64,000 nt of DNA from Alphaproteobacteria bacterium (GTDB taxonomy: Bacteria > Pseudomonadota > Alphaproteobacteria > Rs-D84), in assembly GCA_024402765.1 (NCBI GenBank), contig JAKSTC010000004.1, positions 541-64,540 of the forward strand, in the 5' to 3' direction. The notes under the pieces were generated by a model. It searched no databases and was not told the origin of the DNA. It saw only the letters and a list, made by a program, of their open reading frames with translations. The translations under genes and the position numbers were made by a program. Below, piece after piece: positions 14,613 through 39,289 of the stretch (positions are counted from its first letter, which is position 1; each line of letters opens with the position of its first letter).

Positions 14613-14689
14613 TGGTGGGTGTTAAGGGACTCGAACCCCTGACCCTCTGCGTGTAAAGCAGATGCTCTAGCCAACTGAGCTAAACACCC
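14613..14689 (-). tRNA. tRNA-Val (anticodon TAC), CCA encoded
   Basis: GGGTGTTTAGCTCAGTTGGCTAGAGCATCTGCTTTACACGCAGAGGGTCAGGGGTTCGAGTCCCTTAACACCCACCA folds as a cloverleaf. Confidence 0.97.
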
Positions 14690-32925: not shown

Positions 32926-32977
32926 AAGTGCAAAAAATTCTGGACATAAATTATCAAAATGTTGTAAAATAGTTCTT

Positions 32978-33220
32978 GTCATAGCAGGTTGTTATGATGG
33001 GGTGTCGAAACCCGTTAAGTCGTGTCTGAAATGGACGTAAAAAAATCTCCAACTAAATTGGGTTGGAGGGTTGCCGAATATAAAGAATAAGGCACACAAT
33101 TTCGACTTAAATTGTTTCGAACCTCCAACCACTCGACATATATCGGTGGTTTTTTGGTGGCGTATTTCCACGCATTTATACGCCACCACCAAGGATTAAA
33201 ACCGGGGGGACGAAAGGAAA
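32978..33220 (+). ncRNA. Structured cis-leader RNA, copy A (C4/CI antisense-like)
   Basis: Hairpin 32978-32998; target tcgaaac/ttaagtcg at 33005-33022; outer stem 33061-33069/33122-33130 enclosing two hairpins; terminator-like hairpin plus T tract. Homologous to 39017-39289 with compensatory changes. Confidence 0.75.
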
Positions 33221-33883
33221 ATGAAACGATTGTTTTTGATTTTGTGTTTAATAATAATATGCAATACATCATACGCAGATATTGCATCAGTGGGCTATGT
33301 GGATAGCGTTGTTGCGCCTATACAGGATAGTATTTCAAACATTGATTCAATAAAACAGGATAAATTACCGAATCCACCCAATAATAATGGAATATATAAA
33401 CTGGTTTGGAACGGCAATACTGGACAAATTGTGTGGGAATTTGAACAATATTCATTAACCTGTACACCCAACACATACGACATCGGGTTTAGTCAGTGCA
33501 TAGACCCGACTATACAAGGGTCGGATTTTGGTTTTATAGACCACAATGGCTCAAGTAATAAAGCAAGTGGCTATGGCTTAACAGAAAACGGGACATGGGG
33601 TACAACATTATATACAGGTGATAAAGTAACGGGTATAGCGTCATGTAATAGCACAAAAGGTACTATAAGGGGTGAATATACCATTACAGAATTTAGTCAA
33701 AGTGATACCGGCATATACTGTTGGTGTAAAATGACGGAACCGGCTGTGTCACGTTGGGTGTTTGAAGGTATTCGCGATGATGAAATATATTGTGCTAGCA
33801 TTTGTGCGGACGCATGCGGTACCTATGTTATGGACAAAACCAATAATATGCGTTTTGGTATATTTGGTTCGATCGGTAATTGA
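33221..33883 (+). CDS. Secreted Cys-rich protein of unknown function
   Basis: Signal peptide; IASVGYVD..KQDKL stalk; C-terminal GIASCNST...YCWCKM...SRWVF...CASICADAC. Confidence 0.85.
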   Translation: MKRLFLILCLIIICNTSYADIASVGYVDSVVAPIQDSISNIDSIKQDKLPNPPNNNGIYKLVWNGNTGQIVWEFEQYSLTCTPNTYDIGFSQCIDPTIQGSDFGFIDHNGSSNKASGYGLTENGTWGTTLYTGDKVTGIASCNSTKGTIRGEYTITEFSQSDTGIYCWCKMTEPAVSRWVFEGIRDDEIYCASICADACGTYVMDKTNNMRFGIFGSIGN

Positions 33884-33930
33884 TGGTTTAATTGCGACGG
33901 AGCAAAGCGGAGACGGATTCTTTCGTTCGC

Positions 33931-33957
33931 CACCGCCCGATTGGGCGGTGTGTTTTT
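33931..33957 (+). terminator. Terminator after the Cys-rich gene
   Basis: caccgccc-gatt-gggcggtg-tgttttt; near copy of the hairpin at 32903-32921. Confidence 0.7.
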
Positions 33958-34073
33958 GTAAAAAAATAATAATTTGCCATTCAGAACGCGTAAAAGCAAA
34001 AATATAATTGTTTTTTATTGCTTTTGGGACATCCATATTGTATGTTAAAAAACATATAATAAAGGGTGTTGTT

Positions 34074-34268
34074 ATGGACGAAAAAAAGTTAACTTTCGAA
34101 GAAGCGTATAAGCAATTAACCGAATTAGTTAAAAAAATGGAATCGGGCGAATTGGCGCTGGCTGACTCTGTTGCTGCCTATGAACAGGGCATAAAGTTAA
34201 AGGCATACTGTGAACAATTATTAAAAGAAGCCGAATTAAAAATCGAAACCCTAAAAGTCAGTGAATAA
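34074..34268 (+). CDS. xseB: Exodeoxyribonuclease VII small subunit
   Basis: LTFEEAYKQL..LVKKMESGELALADSVAAYEQG.KL...C...LKEAE. Confidence 0.93.
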   Translation: MDEKKLTFEEAYKQLTELVKKMESGELALADSVAAYEQGIKLKAYCEQLLKEAELKIETLKVSE

Positions 34269-34269
34269 T

Positions 34270-36783
34270 ATGGACAATAAATCTAAATTAACGCCGGTGA
34301 TGCAACAGTATGTTGATATGAAGGCGGAAAATCCCGACGCTTTGTTGCTGTTCCGTTTAGGTGATTTTTATGAGGCGTTTTTTGACGATGCACGCACCAT
34401 TAGTGCGAATCTGGGGCTGGTTTTGACACATCGTGGCTCGGATTCTGATGGTGAAAATATACCAATGTGTGGTATTCCATGGCATGCCGCAGATAATTAT
34501 TTCGGGCGCCTGGTGCGTGGTGGGTTTAAGGTTGCACTTGTGGAACAAATGGAAACACCAGAGGAGGCAAAAAAGCGTGGTCATAAATTTATAGACAGAA
34601 AGATTATTCGCGTTTTAACACCCGGCACACTTAATGATGAAAATCTGTTAACACCAAAAAATTCTAATTTCTTGGTTGCGGTAATGCCATTGTCAAATGG
34701 CGCATTTGATATTGCAGGTTGTGATATTTCAACGGGCGAATTTTTTATTGGTAAAACATCCGACTTAATTGACGACCTGACCCGTGTTTGTCCGGCAGAG
34801 GTTATATATCCTTTTTCAGATGCAGAAAACGAAACAATTATGCATATTCGCGATGCGTTCAAAACAACCGCGGTATATGAAAAGTTATATATTCGTTCAG
34901 ATATCGATCAAATTGTTGCGCGTGTTTTTGGCGGAAATGTTAATGCACAAAATCCAGATAATGCGATATCACTATTGGCAGGATATTTGTTTAATACGCA
35001 ACGCGATGCATCTGTTACTTTTCGTGCACCACACGCGTTTAAGTCGGGGGAACAGTTGTTGGTTGATTCTGCGACATGGCGCAGTTTGGAAATAGATGCG
35101 CCAATAAACGATGGTGGAACATGCCTGTTAAATGTGCTGGATAGGACAAAAACAGCGGCGGGTGGTCGTAAATTGCGCGCATATTTGCGCATGCTATCGG
35201 GTGATATAGATGAAATTAAGCATCGCCAGGAAAATGTTTCGCATATGGTTTTAAATCCGTCTGTGCGTGCGTCTGTGGGTGAAACATTGGGTAAAATGCC
35301 GGATGTTGGGCGGTGTTTGTCGCGTCTGTTGTGTGGTCGTGGTTCGCCACGCGATTTGGCAAATGTTCGTGATTTTATGACATACCTGCCGTCTGTTGTT
35401 GTGTTGTCTGAAAAATTAAATTCAGGGTTGGCGTCTAAATTGGCGAATATAGATACACATAATGCGATTGCTGCAAAATTACATAACGCATTGTCTGACG
35501 ATTTGCCGACATTTTTCCGCGATGGTAATGTGATTCGTGATGGGTTTCATGCGGGACTTGATAATATGCGCAGTTTGTCCCACGGGGGCCAGGAAACAGT
35601 TGCGGCACTGCAGTCTGAATATGCAACCGCCACAGATATTCATACGCTGAAAATAAAATACAATAATATATTGGGATATTTTATAGAGGTGCCCACCGCC
35701 AAAGCCGATATTTTAATGCGCCCTGAATCAGGTTTTATACACCGTCAAACGATGGCGGGGAATATGCGCTTTACAACACCGCGCTTGATTGATTTGGATA
35801 ATGATATTCGCAGTGCTTCGGAAAAGTCTGCGGGTATAGAGGCAGAGATTATTGCAGAACTTATAAACGATATTCGGGCTATTTCTGACGATTTATTAAA
35901 TACGGCGGACACATTGGCTGATTTAGATGTTTGGTATGCATTGGCGTTATGCGCCGATGAATATAATTGGGTCAAACCAGAAATTACATCTGATTGTGCA
36001 TTTGATATTGTTGGCGGCAGGCATCCGGTTATTGAATTTGTTCTGCGTTCGCATTGTCAGAATTTCGTTAAAAACGATTGCAATTTGAATACGCAACCGA
36101 TTGCATTGTTGACGGGGCCGAATATGGCAGGTAAGTCAACATACCTGCGCCAGAATGCATTGATTGTTGTTTTAGCACACATGGGGTCTTTTGTGCCGGC
36201 AACATCGGCAAAAATTGGGTTGTGCGATCAGTTGTTTAGTCGCGTTGGTGCGTCAGACAATTTGGCGGCAGGTCAATCAACATTTATGGTGGAAATGGCA
36301 GAAACGGCAAACATTCTGCGCCGTGCAACAAATCGGTCATTTATTATATTTGATGAAATAGGGCGGGGCACCGCAACATATGACGGTATGGCAATTGCCC
36401 AGGCGGTCCTGGAATACTTGAACACGATGGCACCACGAACATTGTTTGCAACGCATTATCATGAATTGACATCTTTGGTGGGTGATGGGGGATTGCAAAA
36501 TGTATCTTGCCTGACCATAGATGTGCGTGAACATAATAACGAAATAATCTTTATGCATAAAATTGTGCCGGGGGTTGCGAATCGTTCGTATGGAATACAT
36601 GTTGCGCGTATGGCGGGCATGCCACAATCGGTTGTGGAACGCGCAGAAACTGTCCTAGAATCACTAGAGGGGGACCGGGCAGAACCGATTGAAAAAATAC
36701 AGCCCCAGACTGCACCAACAAAACCATTGTCGGTTAAATCGCCCAAGACATCAACAGACCAATTATCTTTATTTGGGGAATAA
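34270..36783 (+). CDS. mutS: DNA mismatch repair protein MutS
   Basis: TPVMQQY, FRLGDFYEAF, TGPNMAGKSTYLRQ, DEIGRGT, FATHYHELT. Confidence 0.98.
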   Translation: MDNKSKLTPVMQQYVDMKAENPDALLLFRLGDFYEAFFDDARTISANLGLVLTHRGSDSDGENIPMCGIPWHAADNYFGRLVRGGFKVALVEQMETPEEAKKRGHKFIDRKIIRVLTPGTLNDENLLTPKNSNFLVAVMPLSNGAFDIAGCDISTGEFFIGKTSDLIDDLTRVCPAEVIYPFSDAENETIMHIRDAFKTTAVYEKLYIRSDIDQIVARVFGGNVNAQNPDNAISLLAGYLFNTQRDASVTFRAPHAFKSGEQLLVDSATWRSLEIDAPINDGGTCLLNVLDRTKTAAGGRKLRAYLRMLSGDIDEIKHRQENVSHMVLNPSVRASVGETLGKMPDVGRCLSRLLCGRGSPRDLANVRDFMTYLPSVVVLSEKLNSGLASKLANIDTHNAIAAKLHNALSDDLPTFFRDGNVIRDGFHAGLDNMRSLSHGGQETVAALQSEYATATDIHTLKIKYNNILGYFIEVPTAKADILMRPESGFIHRQTMAGNMRFTTPRLIDLDNDIRSASEKSAGIEAEIIAELINDIRAISDDLLNTADTLADLDVWYALALCADEYNWVKPEITSDCAFDIVGGRHPVIEFVLRSHCQNFVKNDCNLNTQPIALLTGPNMAGKSTYLRQNALIVVLAHMGSFVPATSAKIGLCDQLFSRVGASDNLAAGQSTFMVEMAETANILRRATNRSFIIFDEIGRGTATYDGMAIAQAVLEYLNTMAPRTLFATHYHELTSLVGDGGLQNVSCLTIDVREHNNEIIFMHKIVPGVANRSYGIHVARMAGMPQSVVERAETVLESLEGDRAEPIEKIQPQTAPTKPLSVKSPKTSTDQLSLFGE

Positions 36784-36788
36784 GTTAT

Positions 36789-37658
36789 ATGGACGGCTGG
36801 ATAATCTTGGACAAAGATAGTGGTTTATTTAGTCGCACCGCTTCATCGCGTGTTGCGCGCCTGTTTGGAATAAAAAAGTCCGGTCATATAGGAACATTGG
36901 ACCCGATGGCAACGGGTGTTTTGCCGATTGCGCTGGGCGGTGCAACGAAAATGATACCGTTCATAGAAGAATTATCAGACGGTAATAAAGAATACTTGTT
37001 TTCGGTTCAGTTTGGTTTTTTGACGGATACATTGGACATAACCGGAAATATCACAGATAAAAACGATGTTGTGCCAAATGATGATGAAATAAAATCTGTA
37101 CTGGGTAAATATATTGGCGGGTATTCTCAGGTGCCACCACAGTATTCATCGATTCATGTTAATGGCGCGCACGCGTATAGTTTGGCGCGCGCGGGCAAAA
37201 ACGCAGACTTAAAACCCCGCAAAATTTTAATTCACGAACTGGAATACCTGGGGCGGCGCGGTAATTCGTGGCATTTTCGCGTTGTGTGTGGGCGCGGAAC
37301 ATATGTGCGTGCACTCGCGCGGGATATTGGGGCGGATATGGGCGCATTTGCCACCGTTGATATGATACGGCGCACGCATACAAACGGCTTTGATATAAAA
37401 AATGCCGTCAAACTTGATTTTTTGGAAAAAGTGTTTAATAATAATGGGGCATTGGATAAATATCTGATGCCGGTGGATTACGGACTGGGGGACATTCCGG
37501 TTTGTAATTTGTCGGATAAGGACGCTGTTTTATATAAAAATGGTGGCTTTATAGAAATGGTGGCGCATGATTCCCGTGTTCGTGTTTATAATAACGGCGA
37601 ATTTATCGGAATCGGTGTCATAAATGAAAACAAATTGCGCCCTGTGCGCACAATATAA
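36789..37658 (+). CDS. truB: tRNA pseudouridine(55) synthase
   Basis: [32 protein letters not shown]. Confidence 0.95.
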
Positions 37659-37669
37659 AGGAACATAAA

Positions 37670-37942
37670 ATGTCCGTAACAAAAGAAAAAAAAGCAGAAT
37701 TGATTCAGGCGTATAAAACAACTGAACATGACAATGGGGGCAGTGCTGCTTCCCAGGTTGCTGTATTAACAGAACGCATTCGTAACCTGACAGAACACAT
37801 GAAGGCTAATCACAAGGATCAGCATTCAAAACGTGGTTTGTTGTTGATGGTTAACCGCCGCAAGAAATTGTTGGCATACATCAAAAAGAACAATGTGTCT
37901 GAATACGAAGAACTGATTAAAAAATTAGGTATTCGTAAATAA
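37670..37942 (+). CDS. rpsO: 30S ribosomal protein S15
   Basis: [15 protein letters not shown]...[20 protein letters not shown]. Confidence 0.97.
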
Positions 37943-37945
37943 TAT

Positions 37946-37968
37946 AACACCCGTTCGGGTGTTTTTTT
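37946..37968 (+). terminator. Terminator after rpsO
   Basis: aacaccc-gttc-gggtgtt followed by T tract. Confidence 0.8.
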
Positions 37969-37993
37969 GTTTTACAAAATTTATGCAAATAAA

Positions 37994-38180
37994 TTTTGTC
38001 ATTCCGGCGTTTTTTGTCATTCCGATGAATATCGGAACCGGAACAGGGTCTATGAAATTTTGTCGCGGCGCTCGTTGTTATTACGAATACCGCAACACAG
38101 GTCTTAAAGTCCCTATTGCGGACCAAGTCCGCAATGACAAAAGAGAGTAATAGCAAAAGAACAGGCAATGACAAAAGAGA
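37994..38180. repeat. GTCATT...AATGAC-type REP/RPE-like palindromic repeat cluster
   Basis: ttttgtcattccg twice (37994, 38012); attgcggac-caa-gtccgcaat-gacaaaa (38115-38142); gcaatgacaaaagaga twice (38131, 38165). Confidence 0.7.
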
Positions 38181-38221
38181 CTAAGTGCGAACAAATGAAC
38201 AATCACAAAGGGGAACAACAA

Positions 38222-39016
38222 TTATTGCCTCTCATACACATCGGCACAATATTTTTTACCGTCCAACATTGTGCATAAACCATGTTCGGTTCGCCGCCCC
38301 ACCGGCATAAAGACAATATAATCGTCAACATGTAAAACATGGCCACATTCATCAACACTGGTTGCACCCGCAGGTGACATTGTTCGATTCGGACAAGGGG
38401 TGCAGGCGACATTCCCCACAAAGTCTTTATAAGTATTTGGCGGACATAGTGTGCACTTTCCTAATACTGATGGCAATTCAACATACTGTTTATATGGGAT
38501 GTATTGCGTAAGCGGAACATTCCCTTCGACAATAACAATATTACCAAATTCAAATCCGCCAACAACAGATGCGTCGTCTGAAAAGATTTCCATTCCAATG
38601 GTATATATTCCAGGGGGTAGAATCATATCAAATTTGGCACCAATGTCCTTTGAGAACCCATTGCGTTTTATTTTTATGCTATCATATGTTATATCAGATG
38701 GAACTTCAAAAACTGCTGTTTTCCATCCTTTTGGCCTTGATGGTATTGGTGTTATAGTTCCGTTAATAAAAACACTTTTGCGAAAAAACTGAATATACAT
38801 CGATTGTGCGTCACCACTGCTGTCGACAACCGTATTTTTAAAATTATGACCATCTTTTGTAGTATCTCCTGTGGATATCCAAGTATCTTCATTTAATAAA
38901 TTTGTTACTTCTATAAATCTTGAATCTAATACGCCATATCCCATCGGACATTGATCATCGGCAATGGCGGGGGCGGTCAGCCCAAACAATAAAATAACCG
39001 ATAAAAATTTCCGCAT
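38222..39016 (-). CDS. Secreted Cys-rich protein with an ephrin-receptor-like (GCC2/GCC3) Cys repeat
   Basis: Signal peptide (APAIA); CTLCPPNTYKDFVGNVACTPCPNRTMSPAGATSVDEC; GGGAG RBS. Confidence 0.85.
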   Translation of the reverse strand: MRKFLSVILLFGLTAPAIADDQCPMGYGVLDSRFIEVTNLLNEDTWISTGDTTKDGHNFKNTVVDSSGDAQSMYIQFFRKSVFINGTITPIPSRPKGWKTAVFEVPSDITYDSIKIKRNGFSKDIGAKFDMILPPGIYTIGMEIFSDDASVVGGFEFGNIVIVEGNVPLTQYIPYKQYVELPSVLGKCTLCPPNTYKDFVGNVACTPCPNRTMSPAGATSVDECGHVLHVDDYIVFMPVGRRTEHGLCTMLDGKKYCADVYERQ

Positions 39017-39289
39017 AAACTCCCCCAGTTTTATCTTGGTGGTGGCGCATAAATGCGTGGTAAATACGCCACCAAAAAAACCACCGAAAATAAATTCAAG
39101 TGGTCAGGAGGTTCATAACAATCAACAGAATTGTGTTGCTTATTTTGATATATCGCAACCCTCCTGAACCAAATATCAGGAGATTTATCGTCAGACACAA
39201 AAAAAGACGCAATGCGCCTCAATTTATTTTCATACTCTCTGACGCGTTTGATCGGGTTATGACACCCCGTCACGGGAACACCCCATGAC
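39017..39289 (-). ncRNA. Structured cis-leader RNA, copy B (C4/CI antisense-like)
   Basis: Same architecture as 32978-33220 with compensatory substitutions, plus an extra terminator-like hairpin gaggcgc-att-gcgtctt-T tract. Confidence 0.75.

Follow-up and report, generated by a model that had tools for sequence, protein, structure and literature searches.

Two signal-peptide protein genes in the stretch of DNA analysed here (64,000 nucleotides of assembly GCA_024402765.1, contig JAKSTC010000004.1, positions 541 to 64,540; the window) are each preceded by a structured 5′ leader RNA, leader A at 32978-33220 on the plus strand and leader B at 39289-39017 on the minus strand. The window is part of contig C19 of a draft genome (921 kb in 24 contigs, 94.8% complete; the source genome) of Candidatus Enterousia, order Rs-D84, a group described in the available parts of PMC12306168 as uncultured gut alphaproteobacteria with genomes below 1 Mb, probably dependent on other cells. 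The two belong to an extensive family of 5′ leader RNAs encoded in cis and not included in Rfam, and we consider it fairly probable that this family is a domesticated attenuator of the C4/sRNA-Xcc1 type. Judged on sequence and predicted structure, it would be a divergent relative, or else a very close structural analogue, of the C4 and sRNA-Xcc1 antisense RNAs, fused to a partner of the a1b1 type.

The original prediction, made from the letters of the window, had claimed that the two leaders are homologous, that their paired elements covary and that they lie outside any prophage. All of this was recovered, each listed element being found where it had been placed. The leaders share 78% mean column identity in the alignment, with an insertion of approximately 33 nt in copy B; their first helix, P1, is formed by gtcatagc/gttatgat in A versus gtcatggg/cccgtgac in B, and their second, P2, by GGG..CCC in both. 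Also located were both hairpins inside the outer stem, the bulge on its 3′ side, the terminator hairpin followed by a U tract and a near-identical GGTGGCG..CGCCACC hairpin before the ribosome-binding site (RBS). The open reading frames (ORFs) flanking both copies are housekeeping genes (gpsA-, mutS-, truB-, rpsO- and rpoH-like), and no prophage immunity gene (icd, ant, sim, etc.) was present among the ORFs of these two contexts.

The RNA is approximately 175 nt long and occurs in 19 distinct copies in the source genome. The same 19 were retrieved by blastn, by iterated nhmmer and by a covariance model (R1, derived from the MAFFT alignment A2 and a structure drawn by us; its E-values are rough), all with E of 2e-20 or better, together with one fragment at a contig end. 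Scanning the genome and its relatives with such a model had been suggested from the outset, and proved fruitful: in a first draw, R1 detected the leader in 34 of 36 genomes of the genus, with 2 to 45 copies each, and in 13 of 24 genomes from other families of the order, and in a larger draw it did so in 106 of 107 genus genomes and 134 of 151 genomes of the order, with more than 1200 matches at the least. Among the remaining alphaproteobacterial families, each represented by one genome, 6 of 149 contain the leader RNA (E 2.4e-13 to 1.1e-6); in the two contexts inspected outside Rs-D84, the downstream genes are again those of envelope proteins, one with a lipoprotein-type and one with a prepilin-type N-terminus, as judged by eye. 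Contigs C9, C10, C15 and C24 begin or end within leaders or within the GGTGGCG..CGCCACC hairpin, and the end of C10 overlaps the start of C9 in sequence. Since the assembly is broken at this repeat, copy numbers from draft genomes are lower bounds.

The position of the leader with respect to promoter and gene is constant. Hexamers resembling -35 and -10 elements stand 7-9 nt ahead of P1 in each copy of the source genome; for copy A, a promoter scan gave a sigma70-like promoter (TGGACA, 18-nt spacer, TAAAAT; 10 of 12 matches) at 32941-32970 (+). A start codon lies downstream of every copy whose downstream sequence is known. Two copies are situated at contig ends; the first is truncated there, and the second still includes its start codon. 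The terminator ends 14-70 nt ahead of the gene across copies, and in other species the start codon follows the U tract by 14-30 nt. Signal peptides, called by a crude rule, were found in 35 of the 43 called downstream ORFs, versus 161 of 561 control ORFs of at least 200 amino acids (aa) in the source genome. Together with the 19 copies and the matches across the order, this bears out the view of the leader as a repeated regulatory cassette for surface or secreted proteins.

Conserved helices and copy-specific addresses

Helix support was evaluated on an alignment (A3) of 47 copies from 30 species, model-fitted to the outer-stem structure described below. In it, 86.5% of the cells pair, versus 70.3% (standard deviation 0.7) in shuffles and 37-56% in slid controls, and the covariation score of 0.44, versus 0.165 in shuffles, was matched by 0 of 500 of them. 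A lack of further copies or of covariation had been named beforehand as grounds for dismissing the family; 19 copies and a covariation beyond every shuffle were found. An independent RNAalifold consensus contains compensatory changes in 24 of its 38 pairs.

In copy A (plus strand), the leader opens with P1, a 5′ hairpin of 8 bp (32978-32998), paired in 98.1% of cells and changed on both sides in seven of its eight pairs; in 40 of 47 copies it begins with a G-U pair, and the transcribed strand is therefore that of the gene. It is followed by the P2 hairpin (32999-33013; 98.6% paired) and by P3 (33023-33037), a variable hairpin whose length differs among copies, which is 72% paired and in which all four pairs covary. 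After an A-rich linker comes seg1 (CTCCAAC, 33047-33053), a competitor for seg2 (33061-33069), the latter being the 5′ strand of the outer stem and beginning with GGU. The outer stem encloses two hairpins: P5 (33070-33097; 84.7% paired), with a conserved GAAUA..GAAUAA loop, a motif also present in the sRNA-Xcc1 consensus, and P6 (33098-33114), which is paired in 100% of cells with both-sided change in one of three pairs (A-U in 25 copies, U-A in 22). The 3′ strand of the outer stem is seg3 (CCTCCAACC, 33122-33130), and two of its C's are also the basal C's of P7 (33129-33155), an intrinsic terminator hairpin followed by U6. P7 is approximately 90% paired and covaries, with both-sided changes in 5/5 pairs in one count and 6/7 in another, and a U tract follows it in all copies.

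Both pairings open to seg2 are conserved. The outer stem seg2:seg3 is paired in 99.3% of cells, five of its nine pairs having changed on both sides, and the competing seg1:seg2 helix in 99.4%, with three of seven pairs changed on both sides; the latter count is not biased by the fit, because seg1:seg2 was absent from the model that fitted the alignment. When seg2 changes, seg1 and seg3 change along with it (CAAC to CUGA(A)C), and from this three-way covariation it follows that both alternatives are kept. One outer-stem pair located beyond the reach of seg1 is U-A instead of G-C in 5 of 47 copies, thus giving the outer stem independent support.

Two further complementarities connect the 5′ and 3′ domains. 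The address a1, in the P2 loop (TCGAAAC, 33005-33011 in copy A), is complementary to a′ (GTTTCGA, 33114-33120), the 3′ bulge between P6 and seg3, and the address b1 (TTAAGTCG, 33015-33022), in the 3′ flank of P2, is complementary to b′ (CGACTTAA, 33103-33110) in the P6 loop. The a1:a′ pairing attains 7-8 bp in 45 of 47 copies, against a non-cognate mean of 4.35 bp, and four RNAalifold columns of this pairing have changed on both sides in 25, 19, 25 and 8 of the 47 sequences. For b1:b′, the column count on A3 gave only 48% pairing, the alignment being out of register there, and a register-free test of cognate versus non-cognate combinations was used instead: the longest contiguous duplex between the 8 nt after P2 and b′ averages 7.4 bp in cognate combinations, with at least 6 bp in 42 of 47, versus 4.1 bp in non-cognate ones, where 7 bp are attained by 68 of 2162 pairs. 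The b sequence is private to almost every copy, while a sequences recur more frequently.

The one copy in which a1:a′ fails is the leader at C6:13731 (L007:1442-1610), which retains 3 bp; it is chimeric, its 3′ half being identical to that of the copy at C18:80060, and it would amount to a natural “mismatch mutant”. Furthermore, gene A and its paralogue at C23:22374 (L005) are 98% identical in their first 300 nt and carry leaders of 70% identity with different addresses; leader and gene act as modules exchanged independently of each other.

Relation to C4, sRNA-Xcc1 and other antisense RNAs

The immI leader of phage P1 was run as a control, and is recognized by Rfam as C4 (68.8 bits) and c4-a1b1 (51 bits), with an isrK-like terminator between them. 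Read from its record annotation and sequence, it begins with a promoter and a hairpin of 7 bp. Next come a hairpin of 4 bp, whose 8-nt loop carries the 7-nt a1, the 8-nt b1 flanking it, a hairpin resembling a terminator, C4, and the second target a2/b2 at the RBS of icd. In C4 itself, an outer stem surrounds two inner hairpins; b′ occupies the loop of the second and a′ a 3′ bulge of 7 nt, after which ACC follows. The parts of the Enterousia leader come in the same order as those of C4 and c4-a1b1 in phages P1 and P7 (RF01695, RF03163), with the exception of a2/b2. It has the layout of c4-a1b1 (two adjacent 5′ hairpins, the second carrying a1 in its loop and b1 in its flank) and that of C4 (outer stem, two hairpins, b′ in the second loop, a′ in the 3′ bulge), and its outer stem starts with GGU, comparable to the GGW site of RNase P given in the accessible sections of PMC5320573. 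On the other hand, it differs from C4 in having no a2/b2 at the RBS and, at copies A and B, no icd/ant or prophage context, and in having an intrinsic terminator directly after the C4-like domain, 2 to 45 copies per genome and the competitor strand seg1. Hence, of the immunity layout of the C4/P4 CI type originally proposed, the C4 part order and the pairings a1:a′ and b1:b′ hold when set beside the phage P1 control, whereas the second target at the RBS is absent.

When R1 was run on the 1.6-kb locus of phage P1 with filters off, its best match fell on a1b1 (13.8 bits, E 0.0037, by a rough calibration), aligning helices P1, P2 and P3 of the leader to the phage hairpins. The Rfam isrK model overlaps a1b1 and the terminator of phage P1, and the position of this isrK-like terminator is that of a terminator-like hairpin inside P3 in four copies of the source genome, including B. 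Such a hairpin with a U tract occurs in the P3 loop of copy B (39199-39220, -), of the copies on C7 and C10 and of the one at C5:14690, and also in loci L052, L054 and L060; it could yield a short RNA comprising a1b1 only. In phage P1, moreover, an ACGCCC upstream of C4 can pair with GGGCGT of the 5′ strand of the C4 outer stem in the manner of seg1 (L173:1031-1053; AF234172 48330-48352), an observation made by eye on one sequence.

The Rfam family scoring best on the 3′ domain of the leader is sRNA-Xcc1 (RF02221), known from Xanthomonas integron cassettes and some APSE phages. Its matches, of 39.1, 37.4 and 37.0 bits, are on the 3′ domain of 3 of 20 loci from other species or families, below the gathering score of 53 bits, with none in copies A and B; the E-value of such a sub-threshold match was 2.4e-5 in a 241-nt scan. 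Both RNAs share a 9-bp outer stem, a first hairpin whose loop reads AAUA..GAAUAA, another hairpin after it, a 3′ bulge of 6-7 nt and ACC, and the stretch L142:1580-1659 aligns with the sRNA-Xcc1 model over the same outer stem, loop, second hairpin, bulge and ACC. As far as the partial descriptions of that family go, sRNA-Xcc1, too, is followed by a gene in its own orientation, symE in the Xanthomonas integron cassettes and an ORF6N gene in some APSE phages; these genes are toxin-like, whereas those behind the Enterousia leader encode surface proteins. The remaining models gave less: c4-a1b1 (gathering score 46.7 bits) matched the 5′ domain of one of the 20 loci with 21.4 bits (E 0.49) and neither A nor B, and C4 (RF01695, gathering score 45 bits) had no match at E up to 10 in copy A, copy B or the 20 loci.

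Other regulatory RNAs resemble the leader in part. The P4 CI RNA, compared by description only, lies within the leader of the operon it controls, is complementary to an upstream site and causes premature termination, according to the portions available of PMC4825925; it requires a downstream seqC, of which the Enterousia leader has none. The same portions describe IsrK of Salmonella Gifsy-1, in which one promoter gives rise to a short terminated RNA and a read-through mRNA and two alternative structures decide on activity. These traits are paralleled by the single promoter, the predicted short terminated and read-through isoforms and the alternative structures of the leader, although IsrK activates translation of its downstream ORF, no isrK match was obtained in the leaders, and the internal terminator is found in only some copies. 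Many chromosomal C4-like small RNAs (Group 1) with variable a′/b′, processed from longer transcripts at GGW, are reported for Acinetobacter baumannii AB5075 in the accessible sections of PMC5320573. They match the Rfam C4 motif and have unknown targets according to these sections, while the Enterousia leader holds partner site, terminator and gene in the same unit, and its host is an alphaproteobacterium with a reduced genome. The c4-a1b1 motif is listed in a table of PMC2864571. As for earlier mentions, the word “RNA” occurs 0 times in the text available from PMC12306168, the titles and abstract openings of the literature on Enterousia, Rs-D84 genomes, sRNA-Xcc1 and c4-a1b1 do not refer to the leader, and a literature search returned no paper joining “C4 antisense” with “Alphaproteobacteria”.

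Fold choice, proposed mechanism and alternatives

Minimum-energy folds computed with ViennaRNA contain the seg1:seg2 hairpin in 47 of 47 leaders. Those printed show it nested in a long duplex between the 5′ and 3′ domains, formed by GGG of P2 with CUC of seg3, a1:a′ and b1:b′, together with a complete terminator; both basal terminator pairs are formed in 41 of 47, and the RNAalifold consensus agrees on the fold, including the alternative pairing of CUC with GGG. When the outer stem is forced to form, the predicted free energy rises by 17.6 kcal/mol on average. The a and b pairs, which are pseudoknots in the forced fold, are not credited in this figure, and the true energy gap is therefore smaller.

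As the outer stem makes use of the two basal C's of the terminator, we read the leader as an attenuator with a C4-like, terminator-weakening alternative. Transcription would start at the sigma70-like promoter and proceed through P1, P2, P3, seg1, the C4-like domain and the terminator, with the RBS just behind. In the presumed default “stop” state (state T), the seg1:seg2 hairpin and the long duplex (GGG:CUC, a1:a′, b1:b′) would form and the terminator would be complete. The C4-like fold would consist of P2, P6 and the outer stem seg2:seg3, the last of which would deprive the terminator of its two basal G-C pairs. The balance between both folds may set the share of transcripts running into the surface-protein gene, and the copy-specific a/b addresses would tie each C4-like domain to its own leader. 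The switch might be flipped by a processing event that removes seg1, or by a factor bound to seg1 or to the P5 loop. Dependence on Hfq or ProQ was discarded, as neither gene was found in the 94.8%-complete source genome; RNase P RNA is present in it.

A number of results weigh against this proposal. No Rfam family reached its gathering score in copies A and B or in the 20 loci (58.6 kb, relaxed scans), which includes the C4-clan models against which the original prediction had advised running Infernal, and the case for homology to C4 and sRNA-Xcc1 is consequently built on architecture and weak scores. The outer stem has just 2 nt in common with the terminator, and in the predicted folds it may weaken termination rather than abolish it. 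With the 5′ segment masked, seg1:seg2 is still favoured in 42 of 47 leaders and the full terminator persists in 38; with the antisense segment masked, the corresponding figures are 45 and 40, and the outer stem appears in only 2/47 and 1/47 leaders, respectively. Masking by an RNA acting in trans as a route to read-through is thus unsupported in the nearest-neighbour energy model. Sequence variation in helices P1 and P7 is as large as in the addresses, whose diversity may be plain compensatory drift. Finally, 8 of the 43 downstream ORFs fail the signal-peptide rule, at least five of them being small non-secreted proteins; two of the eight have evident signal peptides by eye.

The alternative that deserves most attention, which we consider possible and on balance unlikely, is that of a purely cis-acting attenuator, riboswitch-like or responding to a protein, in which a1:a′ and b1:b′ are intramolecular only and the resemblance to C4 is either convergent or a vestige. 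The flip of seg1/seg2/seg3 would be brought about by a ligand or protein, perhaps bound to the GAAUA..GAAUAA loop or to seg1, and no trans RNA would be involved. It agrees with the searches for a second target site, as all complementarity was found inside the leader: the antisense segment has no cognate-specific complementarity within 150 nt downstream (8.26 bp, versus 8.18 bp for non-cognate combinations), nor upstream, and a rough genome-wide bipartite search turned up no sites beyond the leader's own for 7 of the 13 copies that were usable (of the others, two fall outside the motif pattern and four have ill-defined addresses), the remaining six of the 13 having 1-17 extra loose matches not assessed against chance. 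Moreover, seg1, seg2, seg3 and the P5 loop are almost invariant over copies and species, as expected of a shared sensor, the succession of aptamer, terminator and RBS is the classic riboswitch layout, and drift, given the variability of P1 and P7, can explain the address diversity. Nonetheless, none of 4227 Rfam families gave an aptamer match in copies A and B at E up to 10, and the genes behind the leaders code for surface proteins and not for the enzymes or transporters of a single pathway. Hairpin loops expose a1 and b′ in the way of antisense RNAs whose partner must be met quickly, and the architecture is that of a family known, from the accessible sections of PMC5320573, for processing and trans action. 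The same target searches bear on a true trans repressor of C4 type, whose processed RNA would block translation of another a2/b2-like target, in an mRNA or a phage, with a1b1 as a decoy. C4 works in this way in P1 and P7, and the A. baumannii C4-like RNAs have unknown targets in the sections just cited. In our leaders, on the contrary, an exact second b1 is present between P7 and +150 in 0 of 38 and an exact second a1 in 1 of 38, allowing one mismatch gives the background rate, and the bipartite search left the own sites alone in seven copies and few loose matches in the other six. A third target (a2/b2 or seqC) was rejected on these grounds, so neither the RBS masking of C4 nor the two-site mechanism of P4 CI is copied in the leader, and we regard a trans repressor as very unlikely.

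The least credible explanation in our judgement, to the point of being nearly negligible, is a selfish or neutral repeat, either MITE-like (a miniature inverted-repeat transposable element) or a promoter and 5′ untranslated region copied along with paralogous genes, whose hairpins have no regulatory role. The many copies, the contigs broken inside leaders, the chimeric copy, which attests recombination among them, and the clear paralogy of part of the gene family speak for it; the compensatory changes in nearly every helix over 30 species, the maintenance of the family across the order and beyond, the fixed orientation with a start codon after every source-genome copy of known downstream sequence, the unrelated protein families preceded by leaders and the 70%-identical leaders of genes that are 98% identical (first 300 nt) speak against it. 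The original prediction had named a known metabolite riboswitch and a simple MITE as the identities that would undo it, and the missing aptamer match, the fixed orientation and the compensatory changes point away from both.

The attenuator reading preferred here allows for a bolder, and in our opinion rather improbable, version. In it, each surface-protein gene would possess a private RNA “immunity” circuit. By default the leader would fold onto itself and terminate; a leader that took up the C4-like fold would be processed, perhaps by RNase P at GGU, and the C4-like RNA so freed would pair solely with nascent leaders bearing its own address and alter what becomes of them. If true, each of approximately 19 genes would have a private feedback loop, and if the feedback were positive, every gene could hold a heritable on/off state, that is, surface phase variation without DNA change in a bacterium apparently lacking Hfq and ProQ. 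Regardless of this version, a large and well-supported structured RNA family is added to a lineage about which almost nothing is known, and it marks surface proteins that are probably regulated together and are the most likely mediators of the contact with partner or host. If the attenuator reading is right, an antisense-RNA module of phages or integrons has been turned into a chromosomal leader with a terminator. The hundreds of natural variants with orthogonal addresses of 7+8 nt would also constitute a test bed for RNA partner finding, and possibly a source of orthogonal RNA switches.

Downstream genes, the anchor hairpin and copy B

The leaders precede unrelated protein families, part of the gene family being clearly paralogous. 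Genes A and B both have signal-peptide-like N-termini: gene A (33221-33883, +) encodes a 220-aa protein with no Pfam or PHROG match, and gene B (38222-39016, -) a 264-aa protein with a Cys-rich Ephrin_rec_like domain. This eukaryote-type domain (PF07699) is found in the product of 38222-39016 (-) and in that of L011:1662-2609, with E of 5.4e-10 and 1.9e-8. Tail-fibre identity of the downstream proteins was considered and is unsupported; one of five had a PHROG match, to a family of unknown function, and the repeat-bearing protein had no Pfam match. Small ORFs of 58-91 aa with no signal peptide follow the leader at L024:1250-1438, L053:1208-1480, L058:1271-1477, L046:1313-1486 and L061:1692-1871.

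Copy B (minus strand) was mapped by alignment with copy A and by pairing counts. Its P1 hairpin occupies 39269-39289 and the region of P2 and b1 39245-39268, with a1 (TCATAAC) at 39262-39256; a1:a′ comprises 7 bp. Copy B is atypical in that b1:b′ forms only 4-5 bp and in its extra terminator-like hairpin with a U tract (39220-39199), enclosed, according to the terminator scan, by a long P3 (39189-39244). It continues with seg1 (CTCCTGA, 39176-39182), which has changed in concert with seg2 and seg3 relative to copy A, and with the C4-like domain (39102-39170), made up of seg2 (39170-39160), P5, P6, a′ (39119-39113) and seg3 (39111-39102). The P7 terminator hairpin with U7 (39074-39103) and the hairpin preceding the RBS (39041-39073) complete it.

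This last hairpin, which we call the anchor, has the sequence GGTGGCG..CGCCACC in copy A (33156-33187, +). It is a near-invariant hairpin of 32-33 nt, GGTGGCGTATTT(A)CCACGCATTT(A/C)T(A/G)CGCCACC, which is always situated between a leader or promoter and the RBS. In 14 copies of the source genome it lies between terminator and RBS, and in five the RBS comes directly after the terminator. There are 20 anchors in the source genome, none in 110 other genomes of the genus and none in 29 loci of other species; being confined to its own genome, it was rejected as part of the conserved element, and is a species-specific add-on outside the family. One gene has a tandem pair of anchors (C12:92446 and C12:92492). 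At C6:7593 (L019) and C23:38028 (L017), the anchor is found without a C4-like leader, and the two loci share instead a different upstream region of approximately 200 nt, identical between them.

Two minor observations concern the window itself. On the minus strand of leader A, at 33047-33068, the seg1:seg2 hairpin and the complementary strand of the A-rich linker behind it are called as an intrinsic terminator, which could stop antisense transcription. In addition, a tRNA gene at 14616-14689 (-) is the sole Rfam match at gathering level in the 64-kb window.

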